A stretch of DNA of 59,162 nt from an uncultured Candidatus Saccharibacteria bacterium (GCA_964410165.1 CAYPFT010000003.1:1-59162); one strand, 5' to 3'. Positions 4,409 through 56,380 are shown, numbered from the stretch's first letter. The notes: a model not told the origin generated them from the letters alone. A program made the numbers and translations.

Positions 4409-6835
4409 TCAGTTCTGCTGAGTGGTTTTGTTTTGCGCCGCTTCTTCCTTTGCCACTTCGAGAATCATCGGCACGATGGAATCGGCGTTCAAAGAGACGG
4501 AATCAATGCCTTGCGAAATAAGAAAACGGAGAAAGTCGGGATAGTCCGACGGAGCCTGTCCGCAGAAGCCGATGTACTTGCCACGGCGGTGGCACGCTTC
4601 AATCGCCATCGTGATGAGCGCTTTCACGGATTTGTCGTTTTCGTTTGCAATCGGCGCGATGACGGCGTTGTCGCGATCCATGCCGAGCGTGAGCTGGGCG
4701 AGGTCGTTTGAGCCGATTGAGAAGCCGTCGAAGATGTTGAGGAAGTCGTCGGCGCGAATGATGTTCGTCGGTATCTCGCACATGACGTAAATTTTCAGGT
4801 CATTTTCATTTTGCGTGAGCCCGAAACTTTTCATGATGTCCACCACCTTTTGCCCTTCTTCCGGAGTACGGCAAAACGGCACCATCGGCTGTATGTTCAC
4901 CAGACCGAATTTTTCCCGCGCACGCTTGATGGCGATGCATTCGAGTTCGAAAGCGGGCGCGAAATCGGGATGCGCGTATCGCGATGCCCCGCGCCAGCCG
5001 ATCATTGGATTTTCTTCTTCGGGCTCATACGCTTCCCCTCCAAGGAGCGTGCGGTATTCGTTTGTCTTGAAATCCGAGAAACGCACGATGACTTGATGCG
5101 GATAAAACGCCGCGCCAATCTGCGCGATACCTTCCGCGAGTTTTTCAATATAAAATTCGCGCTTGTCCGGAAAGCCCGCCGTAATCTTCTCAATCTTCGC
5201 TTTCAGTTTGACATCTTTGATAGCTTTGAAATTCAAGAGCGCGAGGGGGTGCACTTGGATATGGGAAGCGATGATGAATTCCTCGCGAGCAAGCCCGACG
5301 CCTTTGTGCGGGAGGAATGAGTGCGAAAACGCGCCTTCCGGAGAGCCGACATTCAGGCAGACTTTCGTTTTCACTTCCGGAATATGTTCAAGATCGTAGG
5401 AACGCTTCTCGAATTTGAGTTCGCCTTTATAGACGCGCCCGACATCGCCGAGCGATGCGTCCACGGTAATGATGTCGCCGGTTTTTACTTTTGAGATAAT
5501 CCCCTCCGCGCCGACAACAGCCGGAATCCCGAGCTCGCGCGACACAATCGCCGCGTGCGAAGTGCGTCCGCCTTTCTCGGTAACAATGGCTTTCGCAATC
5601 TTCATAATCGGCTCCCAGTCCGGGTCGGTAATTTTCGTAATAAGAATCTCCCCTTCCTTGAACTCCGTGAGTTTTGCGGTTGAAAGAATGACGCGGGCTT
5701 TTCCGATAACGATTTTCTTCCCCACTGAAACGCCTTGCGCGAGGTGTTCTTTTTGTTCTTTCAGCGCGTATTCTTCCAGAGTGAAGCCTTTTTTCTCCGC
5801 CTGTACGGTTTCCGGCCGCGCCTGCACGATGTAGAGTTCGTTCTTCACTCCGTCTTTCGCCCATTCAATGTCCATCGGCATCGGATGTCCGACGCGGGCG
5901 GTATAGTGCTTCTCAATCGCCACGGCCCACTTGGCAAGCGTGAGTACTTCTTCATCCGAGAGCGAGAATTTGTTGCTGTCTTCTTTTTTCACTGCAATTT
6001 CTTTCACCGGCTTGACGCCCGCCGCATAAATCATCTTCACGGTCTTTGAACCGAGGGATTTTTTTATGATGGAAGCAAAACCTTTTTCGAGCGCCGGCTT
6101 AAACACGATAAATTCATCGGGGCTGACTTTCCCTTGCACCACCATCTCGCCGAGTCCGTACGAAGCGTTAATCTCCACCACATCGCGGAAGCCGGTTTCG
6201 GTATCAAGCGTAAACATCACTCCCGACGCGCCCTTATCCGAACGCACCATTTTTTGGATGCCCACGGAGAGCGCAATCGCCATATGATCGAACCCTTTAT
6301 CCGCGCGGTAAGAAATGGCGCGATCGGTAAAAAGGGACGCTATCGCCTTTCGGACGGCGATCATGATATTTTTATCGCCTGAGATATTCAAATAGGTTTC
6401 CATCTCGCCGGCAAACGACGCCCCCGGTAAATCTTCCGCCGTTGCTGATGAACGAACGGCGACATCGGTATTTTTTTCTCCCGAATCGGCGGAAAGCGTA
6501 TGGTACCCTTCAAGAATCTGCTCTTCCAAATCCTTCGGAAACGACGCTTTCAAAATCATTTCCCGAATCTTTTTCCCACGCTTCGCCAAATCTCTTAAAT
6601 TTTTCGTATCAAGTCCATCGAGCGTCCCGGTAATCTTTTCCTGCAGTCCGGAGTTGGACACAAAATACCGATACCCCGAAGCGGTCATCACGAGAGCATT
6701 CGGAATGCGAATACCTTGCGGCGTAAGCGCGTTGTACATTTCTCCGAGCGAAGCGTTCTTCCCGCCAACAAGCGCGACATCGTCATTTGATAAATCCGAG
6801 AGCCATAAAATATACTTGCTTGCTTTGTCGTTCAT
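4409..6835 (-). CDS. ppsA: Phosphoenolpyruvate synthase (pyruvate, water dikinase)
   Basis: ATP-grasp N-terminus, swivel phosphohistidine motif GGRTSHAAIVSRELGIPAVVG, and a C-terminal PEP-utilising TIM barrel. Start set at MNDKASKY (ATG 6835). The 48-codon upstream extension in the ORF track covers promoter/palindrome DNA. Confidence 0.9.
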   Translation of the reverse strand: MNDKASKYILWLSDLSNDDVALVGGKNASLGEMYNALTPQGIRIPNALVMTASGYRYFVSNSGLQEKITGTLDGLDTKNLRDLAKRGKKIREMILKASFPKDLEEQILEGYHTLSADSGEKNTDVAVRSSATAEDLPGASFAGEMETYLNISGDKNIMIAVRKAIASLFTDRAISYRADKGFDHMAIALSVGIQKMVRSDKGASGVMFTLDTETGFRDVVEINASYGLGEMVVQGKVSPDEFIVFKPALEKGFASIIKKSLGSKTVKMIYAAGVKPVKEIAVKKEDSNKFSLSDEEVLTLAKWAVAIEKHYTARVGHPMPMDIEWAKDGVKNELYIVQARPETVQAEKKGFTLEEYALKEQKEHLAQGVSVGKKIVIGKARVILSTAKLTEFKEGEILITKITDPDWEPIMKIAKAIVTEKGGRTSHAAIVSRELGIPAVVGAEGIISKVKTGDIITVDASLGDVGRVYKGELKFEKRSYDLEHIPEVKTKVCLNVGSPEGAFSHSFLPHKGVGLAREEFIIASHIQVHPLALLNFKAIKDVKLKAKIEKITAGFPDKREFYIEKLAEGIAQIGAAFYPHQVIVRFSDFKTNEYRTLLGGEAYEPEEENPMIGWRGASRYAHPDFAPAFELECIAIKRAREKFGLVNIQPMVPFCRTPEEGQKVVDIMKSFGLTQNENDLKIYVMCEIPTNIIRADDFLNIFDGFSIGSNDLAQLTLGMDRDNAVIAPIANENDKSVKALITMAIEACHRRGKYIGFCGQAPSDYPDFLRFLISQGIDSVSLNADSIVPMILEVAKEEAAQNKTTQQN

Positions 6836-7146: not shown

Positions 7147-7233
7147 ATGTTAAAACAAAAATGACGAGCAAAAAAATTGCCGCCCCTATGGACGGCACTT
7201 CAACAACGCCTTTCAACATTAAAAACGCTTACT

Positions 7234-7695
7234 TTATTTTAAATGCGTTAAATCCATACGTTGGGTAGTCCCCAACCATATTACAGCAAACGCGAATAAG
7301 ATAAAACACAAAGCGAGTATTTCCCGCCAATACGCAACAACTATTGCTCCGATCAATGCGCCTAAAGCAAGTACGATGATTGTTTTGACCCAAAACTCTA
7401 TCGGTCCGGAAAGCGTATCCTTAGCACAGTCTTCGTAGAGATTATCTCGTACAACGTCATCCCTTTCCCAGTTGCGTTTATTCCCCGCAATACAAATATT
7501 TTCCAGCTCAAAACGCTCTTTAATAAAAGCCGTGCGCCGCTTAAGTCCGCCTGGAATAAACCAAAGAACATCTTGCTTAAAAAGCTGAAAAATAAAGTAG
7601 GGATTCCATCCAATATCGCCATCATTGATCGAATATTCCAATCTAAAGTAAAGATACAACAAAACAAACGCGCCAATCGCGTGATATATGTGCAT
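7234..7695 (-). CDS. Hypothetical membrane protein
   Basis: 153-aa ORF with hydrophobic N- and C-terminal segments. No recognisable family. Confidence 0.5.
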   Translation of the reverse strand: MHIYHAIGAFVLLYLYFRLEYSINDGDIGWNPYFIFQLFKQDVLWFIPGGLKRRTAFIKERFELENICIAGNKRNWERDDVVRDNLYEDCAKDTLSGPIEFWVKTIIVLALGALIGAIVVAYWREILALCFILFAFAVIWLGTTQRMDLTHLK

Positions 7696-7865: not shown

Positions 7866-8777
7866 TTAATCACGTAATTTTTCCGTGAGCATCCTCGGTA
7901 TTTTTCCTTTTGCGTCAATGTACAACAGGCTCTGAAGTATGAATTCTTTCACCTTTTCGGTTTTCACATGCCCTGATTTGGAATATGATTCAATAAAACG
8001 TTTATAATGCGGGGAACGCTTTTGTAATTCTTCTTCGGTTGGGAATGATTGTGTTTCTATGCCAAATTCCTTGAAGATTTTCTTTGCACGTGCCACTTAG
8101 CCGGATTAATTTGGTTGATAATCAACTCGGATTGCAGGTAATGTGCCTCGTACACCGGCTTCTTCTCTCCTCAAAACGAACGATTTTAAGCTCGCAACAC
8201 GATGATTTCGCATGTATTTTTTTTATACACGCGAATTGTTTCAAAAAAACGAAAAAAATGCTTACGCTACCGAACTAAAACGACTACGCTATCAACCAAA
8301 TTAATCCGGCTATTACGCACGTGCGGTATGAGATTCGGTTGTCATGAGGGCAAGTTTTTGCAATTCAGGATTTTCTTTTATAATTTCTGCTATTTTTTCC
8401 GCGTTTCCAACGGTGTCGGTTGATTTTTCTTCAAGAATAATTGCCGTTTCGGGAATATTGGGATATTTTTCCCTTAAATACACTGCCATTTGTTCGCTTT
8501 CCGATGGATATTCTTTGCCGGCAGTTTTTCCTCCTGAAAAAATAATCTTATCAATGAGACTCTCTTTGAACATTTCTCCCGCCGCAAGCACGGACATTTT
8601 TGCCTCAAGACTGAGGCGTAACTTAAATTCTCCCATTTTTTCTTTAGGAGGATATTCCCGCCAATTTTTCCCAAGAACAACGAGTGCATCAAATCGTTCG
8701 GGAAACTCTTTCGCTTCCTTGTTTTCGAGAGAATTAAAAGTGTGTGATTCAATTTTATTAACCATAACCAATGACAA
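7866..8777 (-). pseudogene. DUF218 (YdcF/ElyC/SanA-like) gene split in two by a MITE insertion
   Basis: ORF 8313-8777 carries the DUF218 core (IIFSGGKTAGKEYPSESEQMAVYL ... TTESHTARA*). ORF 7866-8096 continues it ((M)ARAKKIFKEFGIE...). Removing 8094-8324 restores ...HTARAKKIFKEFG in frame. Confidence 0.7.
8094..8316. mobile_element. 223-bp MITE with 23-bp perfect TIRs and an 8-bp target-site duplication
   Basis: TIR tagccggattaatttggttgata (8098-8120) pairs with 8290-8312. The element is flanked by direct GCACGTGC at 8086-8093 and 8317-8324. No ORF inside. Confidence 0.7.
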
Positions 8778-9138
8778 TTTATAACCACAAGCGAGGAGAA
8801 AACGAAAGATTTTCTTTCATTTTCTCGGAGTGCCGTGGTTATATACCCAAAAGATTCGCAAACCTGTGGCTTTTGGGTATATAATGCGTGAGGCTGACAA
8901 TAGCGAGCGTGGCGATACCGAAATCTTACCACAAATAAAGGTTAATGGCCAAAAAAGCTTCCATTGCACAGAACTCCCTTATTCAAATTACACCGTACAT
9001 TTTTCTAAACAATGGTGGCTTTGTTCCCTCTCGGCATTTGACCATATTTCATTATATGGTATAGCGAGAGTCTTTAGGTATATGATTACAGTATATACTA
9101 AAGAGTAAACGCATCCTGCGCAGAAGTTTCCATCGCAG

Positions 9139-50174: not shown

Positions 50175-51068
50175 TCATTCGCGCCCGTAATAGGCGAGGA
50201 TCGCCTGTATGCCGGAAAGATTCTCTTTCCATTCAACAGACTCGTGCGTGGTTAATTCTACCGTGATGGCCGGAATGCCGATGGAGGCAAGCCATCCTTC
50301 GGAGTCGCCGGTAATCTCATAGGCATCAAATGTTTTCACCGCTCCATATCCGGATGCTTTTGCGTAAGCATTCATAATGTCAAGCGTTTCCGGTAAAATG
50401 CCGTTTCGGCATTCCGATGCGTATACGAAGCCCGACTTGCTGTGCCAAAACACCGCCGCCGCCGGCTTATTTTTTAGAATAAAATTCCTGAGAGCGACCG
50501 CTTCCGGTTCGGAGAACGGCGCGGTTCCGGCACTTACCGGATTTCCTTTCCATGTACTCTCCGGTTTCCATTTGCAATCAAAATTTCTATTCAAATCAAC
50601 CGTATGCGCATTAAATCGCCCGGGGATTGCGGCATCCGCGGCTTGCGGAACATCGGCGAGCAAGAAACGCCCTTCTTTGCCGACAACTTTGTACACTCCA
50701 TCGGGATTAAGAGAGGGGATCACCGTAACGGTTACATTCTTTGGCAGAGCGTCCTGATTCGCGTTCAAGTAATCTAAAAATTGATAGGCGAGCAATACGC
50801 TGTTCCATTCATATCCGCCATGCATCCCGCCGGCAAAAACAAGATGCGTTTTGCCGTTGCCATACGCATATGCTTCAATCTTGCGCCCCTCGACGGATAC
50901 GCCGATGATGTCATATTTCGGGCCGGTATTCGTTGTTGCCGAGAGCTCGACAAGTACCTGCTCAGGAGCTTTTCCAATGGAGAAAAAGAAAAACGCAAAC
51001 ACGCCGGCGAGAAGAAGCGCGAGGAAAATAAGAATGAACAACGTGAGCTTCGAAGAAAGGGGTGGCAT
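50175..51068 (-). CDS. M14-family zinc carboxypeptidase-like protein (copy 2)
   Basis: Signal/TM N-terminus. GGMHGGYEWNS and DLNRNFDCKW motifs. Paralogous to the upstream gene. Confidence 0.7.
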   Translation of the reverse strand: MPPLSSKLTLFILIFLALLLAGVFAFFFFSIGKAPEQVLVELSATTNTGPKYDIIGVSVEGRKIEAYAYGNGKTHLVFAGGMHGGYEWNSVLLAYQFLDYLNANQDALPKNVTVTVIPSLNPDGVYKVVGKEGRFLLADVPQAADAAIPGRFNAHTVDLNRNFDCKWKPESTWKGNPVSAGTAPFSEPEAVALRNFILKNKPAAAVFWHSKSGFVYASECRNGILPETLDIMNAYAKASGYGAVKTFDAYEITGDSEGWLASIGIPAITVELTTHESVEWKENLSGIQAILAYYGRE

Positions 51069-52012
51069 TATTCCGCGTAATGTTTTAACAGAGCATCAAT
51101 CCCCGCTTGGTTTTTGCTCCATTCCGTATCGGTGTGATTCGTGAGGAGAACGCTCACGGCGGGAATTTTTTTCTTGGCGAACCAATTGACCATATCGCCG
51201 GTTATTTTATAGAAATCAAAACTTTTATATGCCGGGTATCCGGAAGCGGCGGCGTACGCTTTCACAATCTCGGCCGTTTCCGGAAGCACGCCGTCATGGC
51301 AGTTCGATGCAAAGACGCCGCCGGCGGAACTGTACCAGACTACCGCCGCGGATAAACTGCGCGTCTCCGCATAATTTTTTATCGCGAGCGATTCCGGCTC
51401 GGAAAACGCCGCGCCCCCGCCACTCACTTTCGCGGTTTTCCACACGCCGGATTCCTGCCAGTCGCAGTCAAAATTTCGGTTCAGGTCAACGCTGTTTGCG
51501 TTGAACCGCCCGGGTACGGTCGCCGCTTCCCCTGCCGGCACATCCGATGCGGAGAAACGCCCTTCTTTGCCGGTAACTTTATAGATCCCATCGGGATTGA
51601 GCGCCGGGATGACCGTTGCTTTTATGCCTGCCGGGAGAGCGCTTTCGTTTTTTTCAAAATAATCCATCGCCTCATAAGCAACCAATGCGGTGTTCCATTC
51701 GTATCCGCCGTGAATGCCGCCGATAAATAAAATTTCTCTCTCCCCTTTCCCGTAGTGATACGCGACAATATCTCTCCCCTCGACAGATTTCCCGATAACC
51801 GTTTTTGTTTCATCCGCTATCGGTTCGACAGCCGACGGCGGTTCGGTTTGCGGTGTGCTCGTTTGCCGGTTTAATCTTTTCCCGCCGGTATCCGGCATTG
51901 CCACATTTTGATCTTCGACCATTTCCAACGTATCGAATGAACTTCCCTTCCAAAAATACGCGCCAAGACCCAAAAGAACAACGACTATAAGTATGATGAT
52001 GGTGTTTTTCAT
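51068..52012 (-). CDS. M14-family zinc carboxypeptidase-like protein (copy 1)
   Basis: Signal/TM N-terminus. GGIHGGYEWNT and DLNRNFDCDW motifs. Its stop overlaps the start of copy 2. Confidence 0.7.
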   Translation of the reverse strand: MKNTIIILIVVVLLGLGAYFWKGSSFDTLEMVEDQNVAMPDTGGKRLNRQTSTPQTEPPSAVEPIADETKTVIGKSVEGRDIVAYHYGKGEREILFIGGIHGGYEWNTALVAYEAMDYFEKNESALPAGIKATVIPALNPDGIYKVTGKEGRFSASDVPAGEAATVPGRFNANSVDLNRNFDCDWQESGVWKTAKVSGGGAAFSEPESLAIKNYAETRSLSAAVVWYSSAGGVFASNCHDGVLPETAEIVKAYAAASGYPAYKSFDFYKITGDMVNWFAKKKIPAVSVLLTNHTDTEWSKNQAGIDALLKHYAE

Positions 52013-52746: not shown

Positions 52747-52882
52747 TGCGGGACTAGGAACTCGCCCCATTGCGGGGCGGGGATTTTTTGCCTCGCTTTG
52801 CTCAGCATAAAAAATCCCTTCGAGCCCTAGGCGGAAGTGAAGCAGTTCACTTCCTTCCCGCAGGAAAAAACTTCGTTTTTTA
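52747..52882. repeat. tRNA-Gln trailer unit: a direct copy and a hairpin-split inverted copy of the tRNA-Gln 3' end
   Basis: tgcgggactagg (52747-58) equals 52884-95. Hairpins cgcccc-attgc-ggggcg and gggatttttt..CTCGCTTTGCTC..aaaaaatccc. Then TTCGAGCCCTAG-gc-[ggaagtgaaGCAGttcacttcc]-t-TCCCGCAG (52819-63). Confidence 0.75.
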
Positions 52883-52953
52883 CTGCGGGACTAGGGCTCG
52901 AACCTAGATACTCAGGACCAAAACCTGATGTCCTACCATTAGACGATCCCGCA
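52883..52953 (-). tRNA. tRNA-Gln (anticodon TTG)
   Basis: TGCGGGA/TCCCGCA acceptor (U1:A72, as in bacterial tRNA-Gln), anticodon loop TTTTGGT, T-loop TTCGAGC, 71 nt. No encoded CCA. Confidence 0.9.
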
Positions 52954-53122
52954 ATGAATTTTTTACAAAGTTCTCGTCTTCACAATGAGGCGTCCGTTTT
53001 TGCGACTTCACTCGAACCTACTTTATCAAAAATTCCTGAATGACGAAAGCCCCGCCACCGCCTCGCTCCGCTCGGCAACCCCAAAGAAGTTCTGGGCAGT
53101 GTGGCGGGGCTTTAATGCGGAC

Positions 53123-53159
53123 TCGTCTGTATCCCCGCCCGCAGGGTCTGGGGAGGAAT
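53123..53159. repeat. Left 37-bp inverted repeat of the cassette
   Basis: ctcgtctgtatccccgcccgcagggtctggggaggaat is the exact reverse complement of 56129-56165. An imperfect extension (tgcggactcgtct) mimics the tRNA-Gln 5' end. Confidence 0.8.
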
Positions 53160-53176
53160 GCGGGCGGGGGGTTGCT

Positions 53177-54229
53177 TCAATTTTTCGATTCTGCGAATTT
53201 CAAAATGTATGGATAAACTTCCGCGATTTCACCCATCGTTGATTTGTAGAGGTGTTGAGATTCTACATCGTTGCTCCCAAGATTGAGGTACTTGTATCCA
53301 AGAAGTTTGGCGCGCGCCGCCAAACTGAAAAATTGATATTGGATAAGTCCCTCGTACTCAACATCGCAAAAACTGGCATTTACCGCCAAGCAATTTTGAT
53401 TGATCGGGTATGCCGACGTAAACGCAACAGGTCGGTTATTAAAAAATGTTATATACGCAATTATATTTTCATTATCAACTTTATCAGCGTACTCGTCAAT
53501 GAAATGTGGGTAGTAGACACCACCCATCCACTTTTTAATCTCTTTTACATCGGCACCCTTTTCAAACTGCTTGGCGGTTCTTTCTGCTATATCTGAACTC
53601 CACCGGTCTACCAGTTCACGAAATGACTCTTGTAAATTTTTTGTAAGACTTCTCTCTTGCGCCTCGTATTCTCCAAAAAATATTTTCCTCTTGATTTTTC
53701 GTATGTGATTTCTAAAGCTATCCATCTTCACACTCGGAACAAAACCAAATGTGGCCTTGATTATGTCGTCAACGCTACAAACGATTTCAGGATATTTGTC
53801 ATCATCAAGTTTCTTAAAATCCGTATTGCCGCTAGAAGGCACTTCCTGAAAACAATTTTTGAGCAAATAATCTTTGTTTTCATCACTGTATATTTTCTTC
53901 GCAAAAATCTCTTGTCCCAAAACTCCTGAAAGCTCTTTTGCTAAAAACGGAACACTTTGAATTGCATTAACGCCAAGCGGTAGAAAAATATAATTCGGTA
54001 CGGTTTTGCCCCAATTCGGAGCGATAGTAATAAGGTGTTCTTTTTTCTTATCGAAATACTTAATGCCTCGTCCGTTTGATATTTGCTTGATGAAAACCCA
54101 ACTGCGTGAATAGTGATAGGGATATTTCTTCCCTTCGGATTTCAAAAACTCCTCATACAATGTCTTGTCAGAGTCAGTGATTTTTGAGCAGTTTGGTATT
54201 GAGGAAATTATTTTTTCTATAGTATCCAT
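53177..54229 (-). CDS. Putative aminoacyl-tRNA-dependent transferase (DUF2156/LPG-synthase-C or FemXAB-like GNAT fold; tentative)
   Basis: 350 aa. The pattern resembles DUF2156: YSRSWVFIKQ..., MDSFRNHIRKIKRK..., ELVDRWSSD..., and a C-terminal YLNLGSNDVESQHLYKSTMG (compare the NLG/DLGG motif). Assignment is from memory of family motifs, not a search. Confidence 0.4.
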   Translation of the reverse strand: MDTIEKIISSIPNCSKITDSDKTLYEEFLKSEGKKYPYHYSRSWVFIKQISNGRGIKYFDKKKEHLITIAPNWGKTVPNYIFLPLGVNAIQSVPFLAKELSGVLGQEIFAKKIYSDENKDYLLKNCFQEVPSSGNTDFKKLDDDKYPEIVCSVDDIIKATFGFVPSVKMDSFRNHIRKIKRKIFFGEYEAQERSLTKNLQESFRELVDRWSSDIAERTAKQFEKGADVKEIKKWMGGVYYPHFIDEYADKVDNENIIAYITFFNNRPVAFTSAYPINQNCLAVNASFCDVEYEGLIQYQFFSLAARAKLLGYKYLNLGSNDVESQHLYKSTMGEIAEVYPYILKFAESKN

Positions 54230-54236
54230 ACTTTTT

Positions 54237-54309
54237 TGGTGCGGGGGGAAAGATTTGCACTTTCATCCCACGTCTGGAAGACGCATGTGCTACTTTGCAC
54301 CACCCCCGC
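54237..54309 (-). tRNA. Non-canonical tRNA-Gly (anticodon TCC), 3' CCA encoded
   Basis: GCGGGGG-TG-GTGC-AAAGTA-GCAC-A-TGCGT-CTTCCAG-ACGTG-GGAT-GAAAG-TGCAAAT-CTTTC-CCCCCGC-A-CCA. Gly identity pairs G1:C72, C2:G71, G3:C70 and C35 C36 are present. The 6-nt D-loop lacks GG, and the T-loop has G at position 55. Confidence 0.65.
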
Positions 54310-54326
54310 GTACATGTTTGATTTTA

Positions 54327-56057
54327 TCATTTTTCTGGCTCCTTTGAAACCAGAAAATCTTGAATAGCAAGGTAGTCCATTTTTGTTCTTTTGAAAGTTA
54401 TTACCGCGTCAAGAGGCGAGCAAACAATCGGTTCGTTTTCATTAAACGACGTATTGAGCACCATTGGTACTCCAGTGATTTTCTTAAATTCTAAAATTAG
54501 CGAATGATATTTTGGATTTATTTCCCTTCTCACAACTTGAATTCTACTTGTTCCATCTACATGTGTTACTGCAGGAACAGCAGCTCTCTTTTCTTTCTTT
54601 ACGGGAAAGGCAAACTCCATAAACTCTGTTGAGATCGAGGCACAGTTTTTTGGAATTTCAAACCAATCATTTGTATCCTCGCTTAAAACGCTCGGCGCGA
54701 AAGGACGAAATGGTTCCCGCTTCTTGATTCGTATATTCAAAGTTTCTTTCATCGTTATATTCCTTGGATCAACAAGAAGAGAACGATTGCCGAGTGCTCG
54801 TGGTCCCCATTCCATCTTTCCTTGAAACCAGCCGACGATATTTCCTTCGGAAATGAGTTTTGCCGTTGTTTCTTCTATATTCGCCAATTTTTTATATCGG
54901 ACACCTTCGGTGATTAAGATATTCTCAATTTCACTTTCGGAATAGTCTGGTCCCCAAAAAGCATGTTCCATCACAAATTCTCTGTTTTGAGATTGTAGGT
55001 CATTCCAAAGGTAGTACGCGGCACCTAGCGCGGTACCCGCATCATGCGCCGCTGGTTGGATATAAATATTCTCAAAATATCCTCCACGCATGATTTCAAA
55101 ATTTGATACGCAGTTCAATGCGACACCTCCGGCAAGACAAAGATTTTTCGATTTGGTAGTCTCGGATAAATATTTAGCGAGATTGAGCACAGCATCATTC
55201 GTAATTGCCTGAAGTCCAGCCGCCACGTCTTCGTGTGCAGTTGTCCTTTCGTCTGGACTATTCAATCTCTTTACTTCAAACAACTTTTCTAGTGGTTCAT
55301 AATCATTCGATCTGAAACGCAAAACATCCTCATCAACTCTAAAATTTCCGTCTGGCTCGATACTGATGATTTTCTGAAAAAGCGAATGGAATCTCTTTTT
55401 CTCTCCAAACGAGGCAAGTCCCATTACCTTTGCCGCATCATATTCGGAAAATCCTAGAAACTTTGAGAGTTTTTCCCACAAAAAGCCGATTGAATTCGGA
55501 TAGGCGATTTCTTTTATAACAGACATTTTGTTTCCTTTTCCCACGCCAAGCCACGTCGTCGTGATTTCGCCAATCCCATCTATTGACAGCACGGCCGATT
55601 CCTTGAATGGTGAAACATAGTAAGCACTTCCAGCGTGGGAAATGTGATGAGGAACCCAGATGGTCTTATTGGTTAAATCTATCCCCGCATACTCACTAAG
55701 GAGTTTTGGAACATTCATTATTTTTTCGTAAAAAAGTTCCTCGCCGAATTTGCTCCCCCAGTCGCCTTCGGTGAAATATTTATCAATGCCGACATTTTTA
55801 AGACGCTCTTTCGGACAAAAAGAAATTCCAATTTTGTCTATTTCAGTAAATGTGATCCCGGCTTTCCGCAAACAAAAATCGATGGCTTGTTTAGGTATCA
55901 CATCAGGGTTACTAACTAACGCTGGTTTGCCGTGCTTGATTCGCGTAAATCGCTCTTCCTCAACGGCAACAACTAACTGCCCGTCTTTTAGAAGACAGGC
56001 CGAGAGTTCATGATACGTTGTGTTGATTCCCAAAATGTAGGAAGTTTTCATTTGCAT
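54327..56057 (-). CDS. NodU/CmcH/TobZ-family carbamoyltransferase
   Basis: 576 aa. N-terminus ILGINTTYHELSACLLKDGQLVVAVEEERFTRIKHGK, plus a Kae1-like core and a YrdC-like C-terminal half typical of this family. Confidence 0.8.
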   Translation of the reverse strand: MQMKTSYILGINTTYHELSACLLKDGQLVVAVEEERFTRIKHGKPALVSNPDVIPKQAIDFCLRKAGITFTEIDKIGISFCPKERLKNVGIDKYFTEGDWGSKFGEELFYEKIMNVPKLLSEYAGIDLTNKTIWVPHHISHAGSAYYVSPFKESAVLSIDGIGEITTTWLGVGKGNKMSVIKEIAYPNSIGFLWEKLSKFLGFSEYDAAKVMGLASFGEKKRFHSLFQKIISIEPDGNFRVDEDVLRFRSNDYEPLEKLFEVKRLNSPDERTTAHEDVAAGLQAITNDAVLNLAKYLSETTKSKNLCLAGGVALNCVSNFEIMRGGYFENIYIQPAAHDAGTALGAAYYLWNDLQSQNREFVMEHAFWGPDYSESEIENILITEGVRYKKLANIEETTAKLISEGNIVGWFQGKMEWGPRALGNRSLLVDPRNITMKETLNIRIKKREPFRPFAPSVLSEDTNDWFEIPKNCASISTEFMEFAFPVKKEKRAAVPAVTHVDGTSRIQVVRREINPKYHSLILEFKKITGVPMVLNTSFNENEPIVCSPLDAVITFKRTKMDYLAIQDFLVSKEPEK

Positions 56058-56128
56058 TCATTGTAGCAAAATTTTCTGGTCTTTGAAATTTCGCCGAACC
56101 AAAAAATTGAAGATCGAAGACCGCGCGG

Positions 56129-56165
56129 ATTCCTCCCCAGACCCTGCGGGCGGGGATACAGACGA
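56129..56165. repeat. Right 37-bp inverted repeat of the cassette
   Basis: attcctccccagaccctgcgggcggggatacagacga(g) is the reverse complement of 53123-53159. Overlaps the right 22-bp direct repeat. Confidence 0.8.
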
Positions 56166-56184
56166 TCCCGCAATGAATTTTCGG

Positions 56185-56257
56185 AGCCGCTTCTCGGGCT
56201 TGAACCGAGGACCTACGGTTTACAAAACCGTTGCTCTACCAACTGAGCTAAAGCGGC
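56185..56257 (-). tRNA. tRNA-Thr (anticodon TGT)
   Basis: GCCGCTT/AAGCGGC acceptor, anticodon loop TTTGTAA, T-loop TTCAAGC, 73 nt. No encoded CCA. Confidence 0.9.
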
Positions 56258-56380
56258 ACGAACTTTTCCTGAGCCTACCAAAACAGCTAAAGCGGCGTGA
56301 ACTTCTCCTGAGCCTACCAAAACAGCTAAAGCGGCGTGAACTTCTCCTGAGCCTACCAAAACAGCTAAAGCGGCGTGAAA
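56248..56380. repeat. 39-bp tandem repeat (3.4 copies) seeded by the 5' end of tRNA-Thr
   Basis: ctaaagcggc(a/g)(c/t)gaactt(t/c)tcctgagcctaccaaaacag starts at 56248, 56287, 56326 and 56365 (partial). Read on the minus strand, each unit starts with GCCGCTTTAGCTGTTTTGGTAGGC, a diverged copy of the tRNA-Thr acceptor plus D-arm. Confidence 0.85.

Follow-up and report, generated by a model that had tools for sequence, protein, structure and literature searches.

Three genes on the minus strand of a 59,162-nucleotide (nt) stretch of DNA from an uncultured Candidatus Saccharibacteria bacterium, hereafter the window, form the compact cassette that is the subject of this analysis; all coordinates are counted on this whole stretch. 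In gene order, an open reading frame (ORF) coding for a 576-amino-acid (aa) carbamoyltransferase (CT) of the NovN/GdmN/TobZ/NodU type (54327..56057) is followed by the 73-nt gene of a tRNA-Gly(UCC)-type RNA with encoded CCA (54237..54309), a candidate private carrier, and by an ORF coding for a free-standing and soluble 350-aa protein, predicted to be a tandem-GNAT aminoacyl-tRNA transferase of the DUF2156 type (53177..54229). An earlier examination of the DNA alone, referred to below as the sequence-only reading, had proposed that these genes act together in tRNA-dependent modification. The location of all three on the same strand and the 97-nt gap between the two coding sequences, as described there, agree with the coordinates. 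The tRNA does nearly fill this gap, but the spacers on either side measure 17 nt (54310-54326) and 7 nt (54230-54236) instead of 18 and 8 nt.

The assignment of the 350-aa protein to the aminoacyl-tRNA-dependent GNAT-fold transferases, made in the sequence-only reading, is borne out by a profile match above cut-off, a confident structural model and the structural neighbors of that model. Of the two Pfam families that had been named for comparison, PF09924 (LPG_synthase_C/DUF2156) is matched with 34.4 bits against a cut-off of 27.5 (E = 1.6e-8), the match being partial (residues 165-318 on profile positions 112-244 of 298), while FemAB (PF02388) gives no match at E ≤ 1; the likeness to FemX thus lies at the level of the fold only. 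A search of NCBIfam returned no match, and a sequence-profile search of the PDB only an insignificant one, to 2hqy (E = 0.6). The AlphaFold (AF2) model, obtained from 21 homologues, has a predicted local distance difference test (pLDDT) score of 91.6 and a predicted template modeling (pTM) score of 0.88. Its best Foldseek match is the DUF2156 protein 2hqy (E = 1e-14, TM-score 0.73 relative to the target), further matches being MprF of P. aeruginosa, FemX (E = 7e-10), Sba18/Sbb17 (E = 1e-9), L-PGS, A-PGS and 5vrv. The top matches are all aminoacyl-tRNA-dependent tandem-GNAT transferases, and sequence identity to the solved members is 8-16 %. In DUF2156 domains, a positively charged α(+) helix acts as the tRNA-binding helix (PMC7334510). 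The helix between the two GNAT domains of the 350-aa protein (170-184 in the model) fits this role, with a net charge of +5 over residues 168-188 and of +2 to +10 in the 21 homologues. No membrane segment was found in the 350-aa protein (maximum Kyte-Doolittle 19-residue mean of 1.3), and neither this protein nor the CT has a hydrophobic segment.

The family of the 350-aa protein is tiny, with 22 homologues among 5.8 billion clusters; an exhaustive search yields three clusters at 50 % identity, after which the score drops from 444 to 144 bits. Its members are publicly named only 'hypothetical protein' or 'BioF2-like acetyltransferase domain'. Among distant relatives, P0037 combines a TrmB domain with a DUF2156 domain, and in others the DUF2156 domain is fused to response-regulator or HTH_3 domains or lies within a non-ribosomal peptide synthetase (NRPS; P0076).

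The tRNA gene is recognized by ARAGORN, by Rfam (RF00005, 54.8 bits for a gathering score of 29) and by the family covariance model (R1, 102 bits). The sequence-only reading had called it an odd tRNA-Gly, an accurate description. The D-loop AAAGUA contains a single G and lacks G18 of the canonical G18-G19 pair, the T-loop UGCAAAU has G55 where the canonical U54-U55-C56 has U55, and the discriminator is A73. The parallel drawn with the specialized tRNA-Gly of staphylococci holds for the T-loop, as the non-proteogenic tRNA-Gly of S. aureus carry TGC or TGT in place of TTC and bind EF-Tu weakly (PMC7826273).

Most of these features recur in the Gly-type RNAs found at related loci, which bear L numbers and were surveyed by tblastn at the level of loci rather than whole genomes. 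Bacterial glycyl-tRNA synthetase (GlyRS) identity resides in G1-C72, C2-G71, G3-C70, C35, C36 and U73 (PMC9976931, Table 1). All but the last are invariant in the 11 Gly-type RNAs, of which four (window, L020, L021 and L005) have A73 and the rest U73. The nine Gly-type RNAs aligned initially have in common the D-loop AAAG(U/C)A and the T-loop UGCAANU, and their stems are kept by compensatory changes. G18 is missing from the D-loop in 10 of the 11 (the exception, in L031, has GG), and G55 is present in nine, namely in the window and eight other versions. The loops of the housekeeping tRNA-Gly(GCC) encoded on the L002 contig are the canonical GG and UUCGA. In a later alignment of 13 cassette-type RNAs, Gly- and Ala-type together, the cloverleaf is 100 % paired, 10 pairs show compensatory change, and the covariation score was reached by none of 500 shuffles.

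Conservation of the triplet itself, which the sequence-only reading had left to a survey of gene neighborhoods, is extensive: the order CT-tRNA-DUF2156 occurs in ten distinct versions (window/L001, L020, L021, L002, L005, L023, L006, L025, L010 and L034) at about nine sites, with DUF2156 proteins 55-100 % identical to that of the window and a tRNA in the gap in all ten. Since the tRNA ends 7-13 nt before the ATG across the triplets, and since in L010 it starts 3 nt past the CT stop codon, co-transcription of the three genes would be the simplest reading. The CT gene adjoins the DUF2156 gene in all loci with enough sequence except L033 and L026, as judged by tblastn. In L008 and L019 the order is reversed (DUF2156-CT), with the CT at 41-47 % identity and the DUF2156 protein at 61-62 %. 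The CT of such loci belongs to another lineage, and the partnership of the two enzymes therefore seems to have been assembled more than once. TrmB-type helix-turn-helix regulators recur beside the cassette (L005, 5324-6154; L032, 3196-3987). In L026, where no CT lies within 6 kb upstream of the DUF2156 gene, the latter is followed by a signal recognition particle RNA (7175-7437) whose best Rfam match is the archaeal model, at 80 bits and below the gathering score.

The most informative relatives are those whose RNA has lost its anticodon. A search with the covariance model of the cassette RNAs, run with filters off, revealed a homologue of 71 nt immediately before the DUF2156 gene of L019 (66 bits, E = 7e-15) that both ARAGORN and Rfam left undetected. 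This RNA has D- and T-arm sequences in common with the cassette tRNAs. Its acceptor stem, GGGGAGA/UCUCUCC with A73, provides G2-C71, G3·U70 and G4-C69, which together with A73 constitute the alanine identity set (PMC9976931). Its anticodon arm is a 6-base-pair (bp) stem closed by a CUU triloop, and L032 carries the same RNA. In L031, a Gly-type and an Ala-type RNA stand in tandem (197-269 and 340-410) before a DUF2156-CT pair. The former has a UCC anticodon, a T-loop CUCAAUU and a D-loop with GG; the latter has the acceptor stem of L019, G3·U70 included, and a GAAA tetraloop. Gene callers had translated this second RNA as an N-terminal protein extension ('SEGSIPS'). A further RNA, of 90 nt and class-II tRNA-like with a long variable arm, lies 49 nt upstream of the DUF2156 gene of L033 (1818-1907), a locus without CT. 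Its anticodon arm is an 8-bp stem capped by a UUCG tetraloop, and its identity appears most compatible with serine, though U73 is atypical. This RNA locus is situated between a HepT/MNT toxin-antitoxin pair and a thymidylate kinase gene.

The alanyl-, seryl- and leucyl-tRNA synthetases do not need the anticodon (PMC9976931). Among the partner RNAs, the Gly-type alone keeps the anticodon, of which C35 and C36 are read by its synthetase, so that the anticodon would have been lost only where the cognate synthetase ignores it. Anticodon-less RNAs cannot decode, and the family therefore appears to consist of private carriers rather than housekeeping tRNAs. The place of these RNAs beside the transferase gene is the strongest evidence for a private aminoacyl donor, which is most likely also the role of the tRNA in the window. 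Considering the locus as a whole, we judge it probable that the cassette performs aminoacyl transfer outside the ribosome with its own carrier RNA. Not every relative has such an RNA: the filters-off search found none in L008, L012, L014/L018, L026, L028 and L029 (best score 12 bits), and the sequence ahead of the L008 gene forms no more than a plain hairpin.

The second enzyme was correctly recognized as a TobZ/NodU-type carbamoyltransferase in the sequence-only reading. Both of its domains, Kae1-like at the N-terminus and YrdC-like at the C-terminus, are of full length (Carbam_trans_N, E = 2e-63, profile positions 2-345 of 346; Carbam_trans_C, E = 3e-69, positions 1-170 of 170). Its best match in the PDB is NovN (9s2t, E = 1e-92 over residues 11-574), followed by GdmN and TobZ down to E = 4e-81, and its HHxxH and DAG motifs align with those of the solved O-carbamoyltransferases. 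It is not a NodU orthologue, since it scores 142 bits against the NCBIfam NodU equivalog, for which the cut-off is 1000. Weak matches to the tRNA-modifying enzymes TsaD/Kae1 were also obtained (E = 0.0027 in Pfam, 4e-4 in NCBIfam). Its homologues at E ≤ 1e-100, over 7600 of them and drawn from bacteria of the Candidate Phyla Radiation (CPR), cyanobacteria and an endosymbiont, form a smooth continuum of identity, and the idea that the CT represents a cassette-specific clade was rejected on that ground. Because this family is huge and continuous, the rare DUF2156 gene and its RNA look like an add-on to a widespread CT.

The cassette was also described in the sequence-only reading as horizontally mobile, which its base composition, its flanking repeats and its varied neighborhoods support. 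The G+C content is 0.37-0.42 over the cassette genes vs. 0.47-0.53 on either flank. An inverted repeat, delineated by a repeat search, brackets the three genes. Its left arm (53111..53205) is made of two segments, and these pair with the right arm (56082..56177) as 53111-53167 with 56121-56177 (I1, 57 nt, 89 %) and 53175-53205 with 56082-56112 (I2, 31 nt, 81 %). The left arm contains a G+C-rich hairpin (53133-53169) and overlaps the 3' end of the gene for the 350-aa protein; the exact 31-nt core of the repeat occurs twice in the window and nowhere else in it. A perfect 22-nt direct repeat (D3, 100 %) is found as well, its left copy (52941..52962) comprising the first 14 nt of tRNA-Gln(UUG) and the 8 nt upstream, and its right copy (56160..56181), which marks the insertion boundary, lying directly past the 3' end of tRNA-Thr(UGU). 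These two host tRNAs, both canonical, on the minus strand and detected by ARAGORN and Rfam, are the landmarks of the insertion, tRNA-Thr(UGU) upstream (56183..56257, 72.4 bits) and tRNA-Gln(UUG) downstream (52882..52954, 58.8 bits). Owing to the break in G+C content and to the inverted and direct repeats, the cassette looks inserted between them. The sequence thus supports a horizontally acquired, apparently mobile unit of about 3 kb.

The 22-nt direct repeat holds the 5' end of the tRNA-Gln gene, whereas the attachment sites of integrases usually hold the 3' end. The outer end of the left inverted-repeat arm (53111-53127) is a diverged inverted copy of the tRNA-Gln 5' sequence. Directly 5' of the intact tRNA-Thr gene, three tandem 39-nt copies (56236-56379, 91-100 % identical) of its first 22 nt and the sequence upstream represent partial tRNA duplications. 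Just past tRNA-Gln, two tandem paralogues resembling M14 zinc carboxypeptidases, recognized by sequence motifs only, occupy 50175-52012; as the cassette is an insertion, this adjacency is probably accidental.

No recombinase or transposase is present among the genes between the repeats of the window, and a serine recombinase abuts the cassette in L006 only. The neighborhoods of the cassette copies, at about nine chromosomal sites, are mutually unrelated; tRNA genes also adjoin it in L002, L006 (after tRNA-Ser), L010 (near tRNA-Gln(CUG)) and L020. The window and L002, from Portnoybacteria, are homologous at the DNA level over a segment that begins some 80 nt before the CT gene and ends at the stop codon of the gene for the 350-aa protein. 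In L002, the homologous three genes are enclosed by a terminal inverted repeat of about 335 nt (5324-5659 and 8537-8870, 88-92 % complementary) that starts directly after the housekeeping tRNA-Gly(GCC) and is homologous to that of the window but longer; no terminal inverted repeat of this kind was found in L005 or L021. The carriers belong to three CPR phyla (Portnoybacteria, Saccharibacteria and Moraniibacteriota), with a distant version in Bacteroidales. No relative was found on viral contigs, either by protein or by RNA pattern.

A consensus scan of the minus strand revealed two promoter-like sites, TTCAAA-16-TG-TACAAT just upstream of the CT gene (56060..56087) and TTCAAA-16-TG-TAAAAT in the 3' end of the CT gene, 12 nt before the 5' end of the tRNA (54321..54348). 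Such sites are weak evidence, their number in the region not exceeding the expectation from shuffled sequence. An internal promoter before the tRNA was considered and dropped, the TGATAAAAT element being kept in close relatives only and overlapping the CT stop codon. The first site stops 3 nt ahead of the CT start as annotated, and alignments with homologues begin at residue 4-6; the true start is probably M3 (56051), and the mRNA is possibly leaderless.

Relatives of the 350-aa protein at 38-48 % identity form a distant subfamily that is linked both to a transporter of the Vut_1/YhhQ type and to a TIR protein (L012, L014/L018, L028 and L029). The four-gene module of Vut_1, TIR protein, DUF2156 and CT spans 5780-10777 in L012, 424-5437 in L029, 5300-11134 in L014 and 2107-4153 in L028; between these loci Vut_1 is 77-84 % identical vs. 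32-36 % for the TIR protein. In a model of the TIR protein (pLDDT 84.9), the N-terminal domain matches TIR-STING effectors and the C-terminal domain bears a weak likeness to PLD/Zucchini nucleases. The elements that carry L012 and L014 are integrative or conjugative and have integrases, a relaxase and type IV secretion system genes, and the L008 pair follows an ABC importer of the PnrA nucleoside type. Neither the window nor any CPR-type locus contains a Vut_1, TIR or nucleoside-importer gene. The PADLOC defense models returned no family for both enzymes and their distant homologues; given this and the lack of relatives on viral contigs, the notion of a defense system was rejected.

Several observations weigh against a private carrier RNA that serves the two enzymes. 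The UCC anticodon of the window tRNA is intact in a normal-looking loop, which makes some decoding possible, and its discriminator is A73, whereas bacterial glycine identity uses U73 (PMC9976931). G55 is not universal, as U55 is found in L034 and in the Gly-type RNA of L031, and private RNAs are not obligatory, since L008, L012, L014 and L029 do without. The very large family to which the CT belongs makes it non-specific to the module, and no neighboring gene in the CPR-type loci points to an acceptor. Watson-Crick covariation at positions 32-38 (C-G, G-C, A-U), once considered as a sign of a non-decoding five-base loop, was dropped because the housekeeping tRNA-Gly(GCC) of L002 pairs there too. 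The proteogenic tRNA-Gly P1 of S. aureus has even more pairs in this region (PMC7826273); pairing found in ordinary tRNA-Gly is no evidence of specialization. Were the RNA an ordinary translational tRNA-Gly(UCC), either housekeeping or supplying codons for AT-rich foreign genes and not specifically used by the enzymes, its intact anticodon and regular cloverleaf would be expected, as would the location of the cassette within a tRNA gene cluster. GGA accounts for 46 % of the glycine codons of the cassette vs. 25 % in the flanking genes, and neither ARAGORN nor the family covariance model showed a second tRNA-Gly within the 59-kb window. We nonetheless hold this explanation to be very improbable: the RNA travels with both genes to about nine unrelated sites, and the G18-less D-loops and G55 of nearly all Gly-type RNAs differ from the canonical loops of the housekeeping tRNA-Gly on the same contig in L002. 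Usage of GGA and GGG together differs little (59 % in the cassette vs. 52 % in the flanks) and the homologues without anticodon loop supply no codon, so that codon supply was discarded as a general explanation.

RNA and enzymes would be linked just as well if the RNA served the enzymes as target or regulator instead of as donor. The CT, related to Kae1 and YrdC, could N-carbamoylate Gly-tRNA or modify the RNA, in keeping with its weak matches to TsaD/Kae1, or the GNAT protein could act like a toxin on charged tRNA with the private RNA as decoy or antidote, GNAT enzymes with tRNA substrates being known (discussion in PMC13219725). This is improbable given that the 350-aa protein best matches tandem-GNAT transferases with aminoacyl-tRNA donors and not single-domain GNAT toxins, that the CT is a full-length small-molecule O-carbamoyltransferase by its match to NovN, that several relatives retain both enzymes without a partner RNA, and that an anticodon loop with A37, as a site to be modified, is missing from the Ala-type RNAs. 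Nor does the donor have to serve the envelope or metabolism: the module might modify a nucleobase, a nucleoside or a nucleic acid in a genetic-conflict system, as phage Mu Mom does in its Gly-tRNA-dependent modification of DNA (PMC13219725). The constant linkage of the distant subfamily to a Vut_1/YhhQ transporter and a TIR protein with a PLD/Zucchini-like C-terminus, the nucleoside importer ahead of the L008 pair and the mobile elements that carry L012 and L014 would all suit such a function. We still consider it unlikely, as those partner genes are absent from the window and from every CPR-type locus, PADLOC and viral contigs yielded nothing, the 350-aa protein is structurally closest to transferases acting on lipids, peptidoglycan and amino sugars, and the cassette has no base-exchange or DNA-binding component.

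If the cassette does transfer an aminoacyl group from its own RNA, its operation could be as follows. The three genes would be transcribed together, and RNase P and 3' processing would free the tRNA. The RNA would then be charged by the host GlyRS, for which G1-C72, C2-G71, G3-C70, C35 and C36 are kept, and by analogy with the non-proteogenic tRNA-Gly of staphylococci, its deviant elbow, without G18 and with G55, would bar or disfavor the route to EF-Tu and the ribosome. The 350-aa enzyme would grip the acceptor arm through its basic inter-domain helix and move the glycine onto an acceptor, at a hydroxyl or an amino group. The CT would use carbamoyl phosphate and ATP to form carbamoyl-AMP, and would then carbamoylate either the same acceptor or the new glycyl amine. 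The nature of the acceptor is the weakest step of this scheme; our best guess, made with low confidence, is a soluble precursor that bears a sugar, for instance a nucleotide-sugar or a precursor of the cell wall. It is favored because both enzymes are soluble, because the RNA identities are Gly, Ala and probably Ser, and because of NodU chemistry. Gly, Ala and Ser are the amino-acid set of peptidoglycan cross-bridges, and NodU-type enzymes carbamoylate sugars of the N-acetylglucosamine type.

A broader proposal, which we regard as evenly balanced, is that operon-encoded "carrier tRNAs", released from any part in translation, form a family present in CPR bacteria and their relatives. Within one RNA family the identity would have switched between Gly and Ala, one relative would have a separate RNA with a long variable arm (probably Ser), and a tri- or tetraloop would replace the anticodon loop where the synthetase ignores it. 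Such RNAs would serve DUF2156 transferases as carrier proteins serve NRPSs and polyketide synthases and, with the CT, would install a hitherto unknown decoration, glycyl (or alanyl, or seryl) plus carbamoyl, on a cell-wall precursor or metabolite. If this is true, the relatives show how a tRNA became, step by step, nothing but an aminoacyl carrier, by a switch of identity and then by loss of the anticodon, and offer a natural experiment on what a tRNA requires once it is freed from the ribosome. They would also represent a new class of aminoacylatable small RNAs missed by standard tRNA finders. The cassette points to uncharacterized modification chemistry in CPR bacteria, whose envelope biology is little known, and suggests compact orthogonal pairs of RNA and transferase that could be useful in engineering.

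To our knowledge, the dedicated non-proteogenic tRNAs on record essentially all serve peptidoglycan synthesis in staphylococci, with genes dispersed among those of ordinary tRNAs. This FemXAB (FmhB/FemA/FemB) system is close in its RNA, with a specialized tRNA-Gly(UCC) that has TGC for TTC and an anticodon stem of six pairs closed by a five-base loop (PMC7826273). It likewise uses tandem-GNAT aminoacyl-tRNA transferases as a route for glycine outside the ribosome, a function that is predicted for the cassette, and FemX is a fold neighbor of the 350-aa protein. Unlike FemXAB, the cassette enzyme belongs to the DUF2156 branch, without a Pfam FemAB match, and the tRNA is encoded within the enzyme operon and moves with it; the cassette also has relatives with anticodon-less Ala-type and class-II-type RNAs, is coupled to a CT and resides in CPR hosts. 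With the C-terminal domain of MprF, or aminoacyl-phosphatidylglycerol synthase, and with fungal ErdS, the 350-aa protein shares the PF09924 match, the double-GNAT fold and the basic inter-domain helix, as well as, by prediction, the aminoacyl-tRNA donor. It lacks the N-terminal membrane flippase domain of MprF and has its own tRNA and a CT partner. A Gly-tRNA-dependent GNAT-superfamily enzyme for non-translational modification is also known from a mobile element, namely Mom of phage Mu (PMC13219725), but Mom is a single small GNAT that acts on DNA adenine and draws on all host isoacceptors, with neither a private tRNA nor a CT.

In the BD-12 pathway, Sba18/Sbb17 (Orf11) catalyze the Gly-tRNA-dependent glycylation of streptothrisamine, an amino-sugar intermediate (PMC12945691). 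For these fold neighbors of the 350-aa protein, the PDB entries describe complexes of an aminoacyl-tRNA-dependent peptide synthase with streptothrisamine. The sugar of the streptothricin scaffold is also carbamoylated, which would make the same pair of decorations. Sba18 and Sbb17 are part of large actinomycete biosynthetic clusters and use host tRNA, whereas the cassette consists of two stand-alone enzymes and a private RNA in hosts with minimal metabolism. The CT for its part resembles NovN, GdmN, TobZ and NodU in its full-length Carbam_trans_N and Carbam_trans_C domains, yet is not their orthologue and differs from them in its genetic coupling to an aminoacyl-tRNA transferase. Lastly, the anticodon-less RNAs recall the tRNA-like domain of tmRNA and viral tRNA-like structures, which also lack an anticodon and are aminoacylated by host synthetases, and the Ala-type shares G3·U70 with tmRNA. 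Unlike these, the partner RNAs are stand-alone cloverleaves of 71-90 nt with a tri- or tetraloop anticodon arm, located beside a transferase gene, and no ribosome-rescue or viral function is implied for them. Among 8 million papers searched, none was found to link DUF2156 to either a carbamoyltransferase or tRNA-like RNAs, or to describe operon-encoded or anticodon-less donor RNAs for aminoacyl-tRNA transferases. None of the components of the cassette is of a new kind; the novelty lies in a private RNA packaged together with its transferase, in identity-switched relatives without anticodon, and in the coupling to a carbamoyltransferase.

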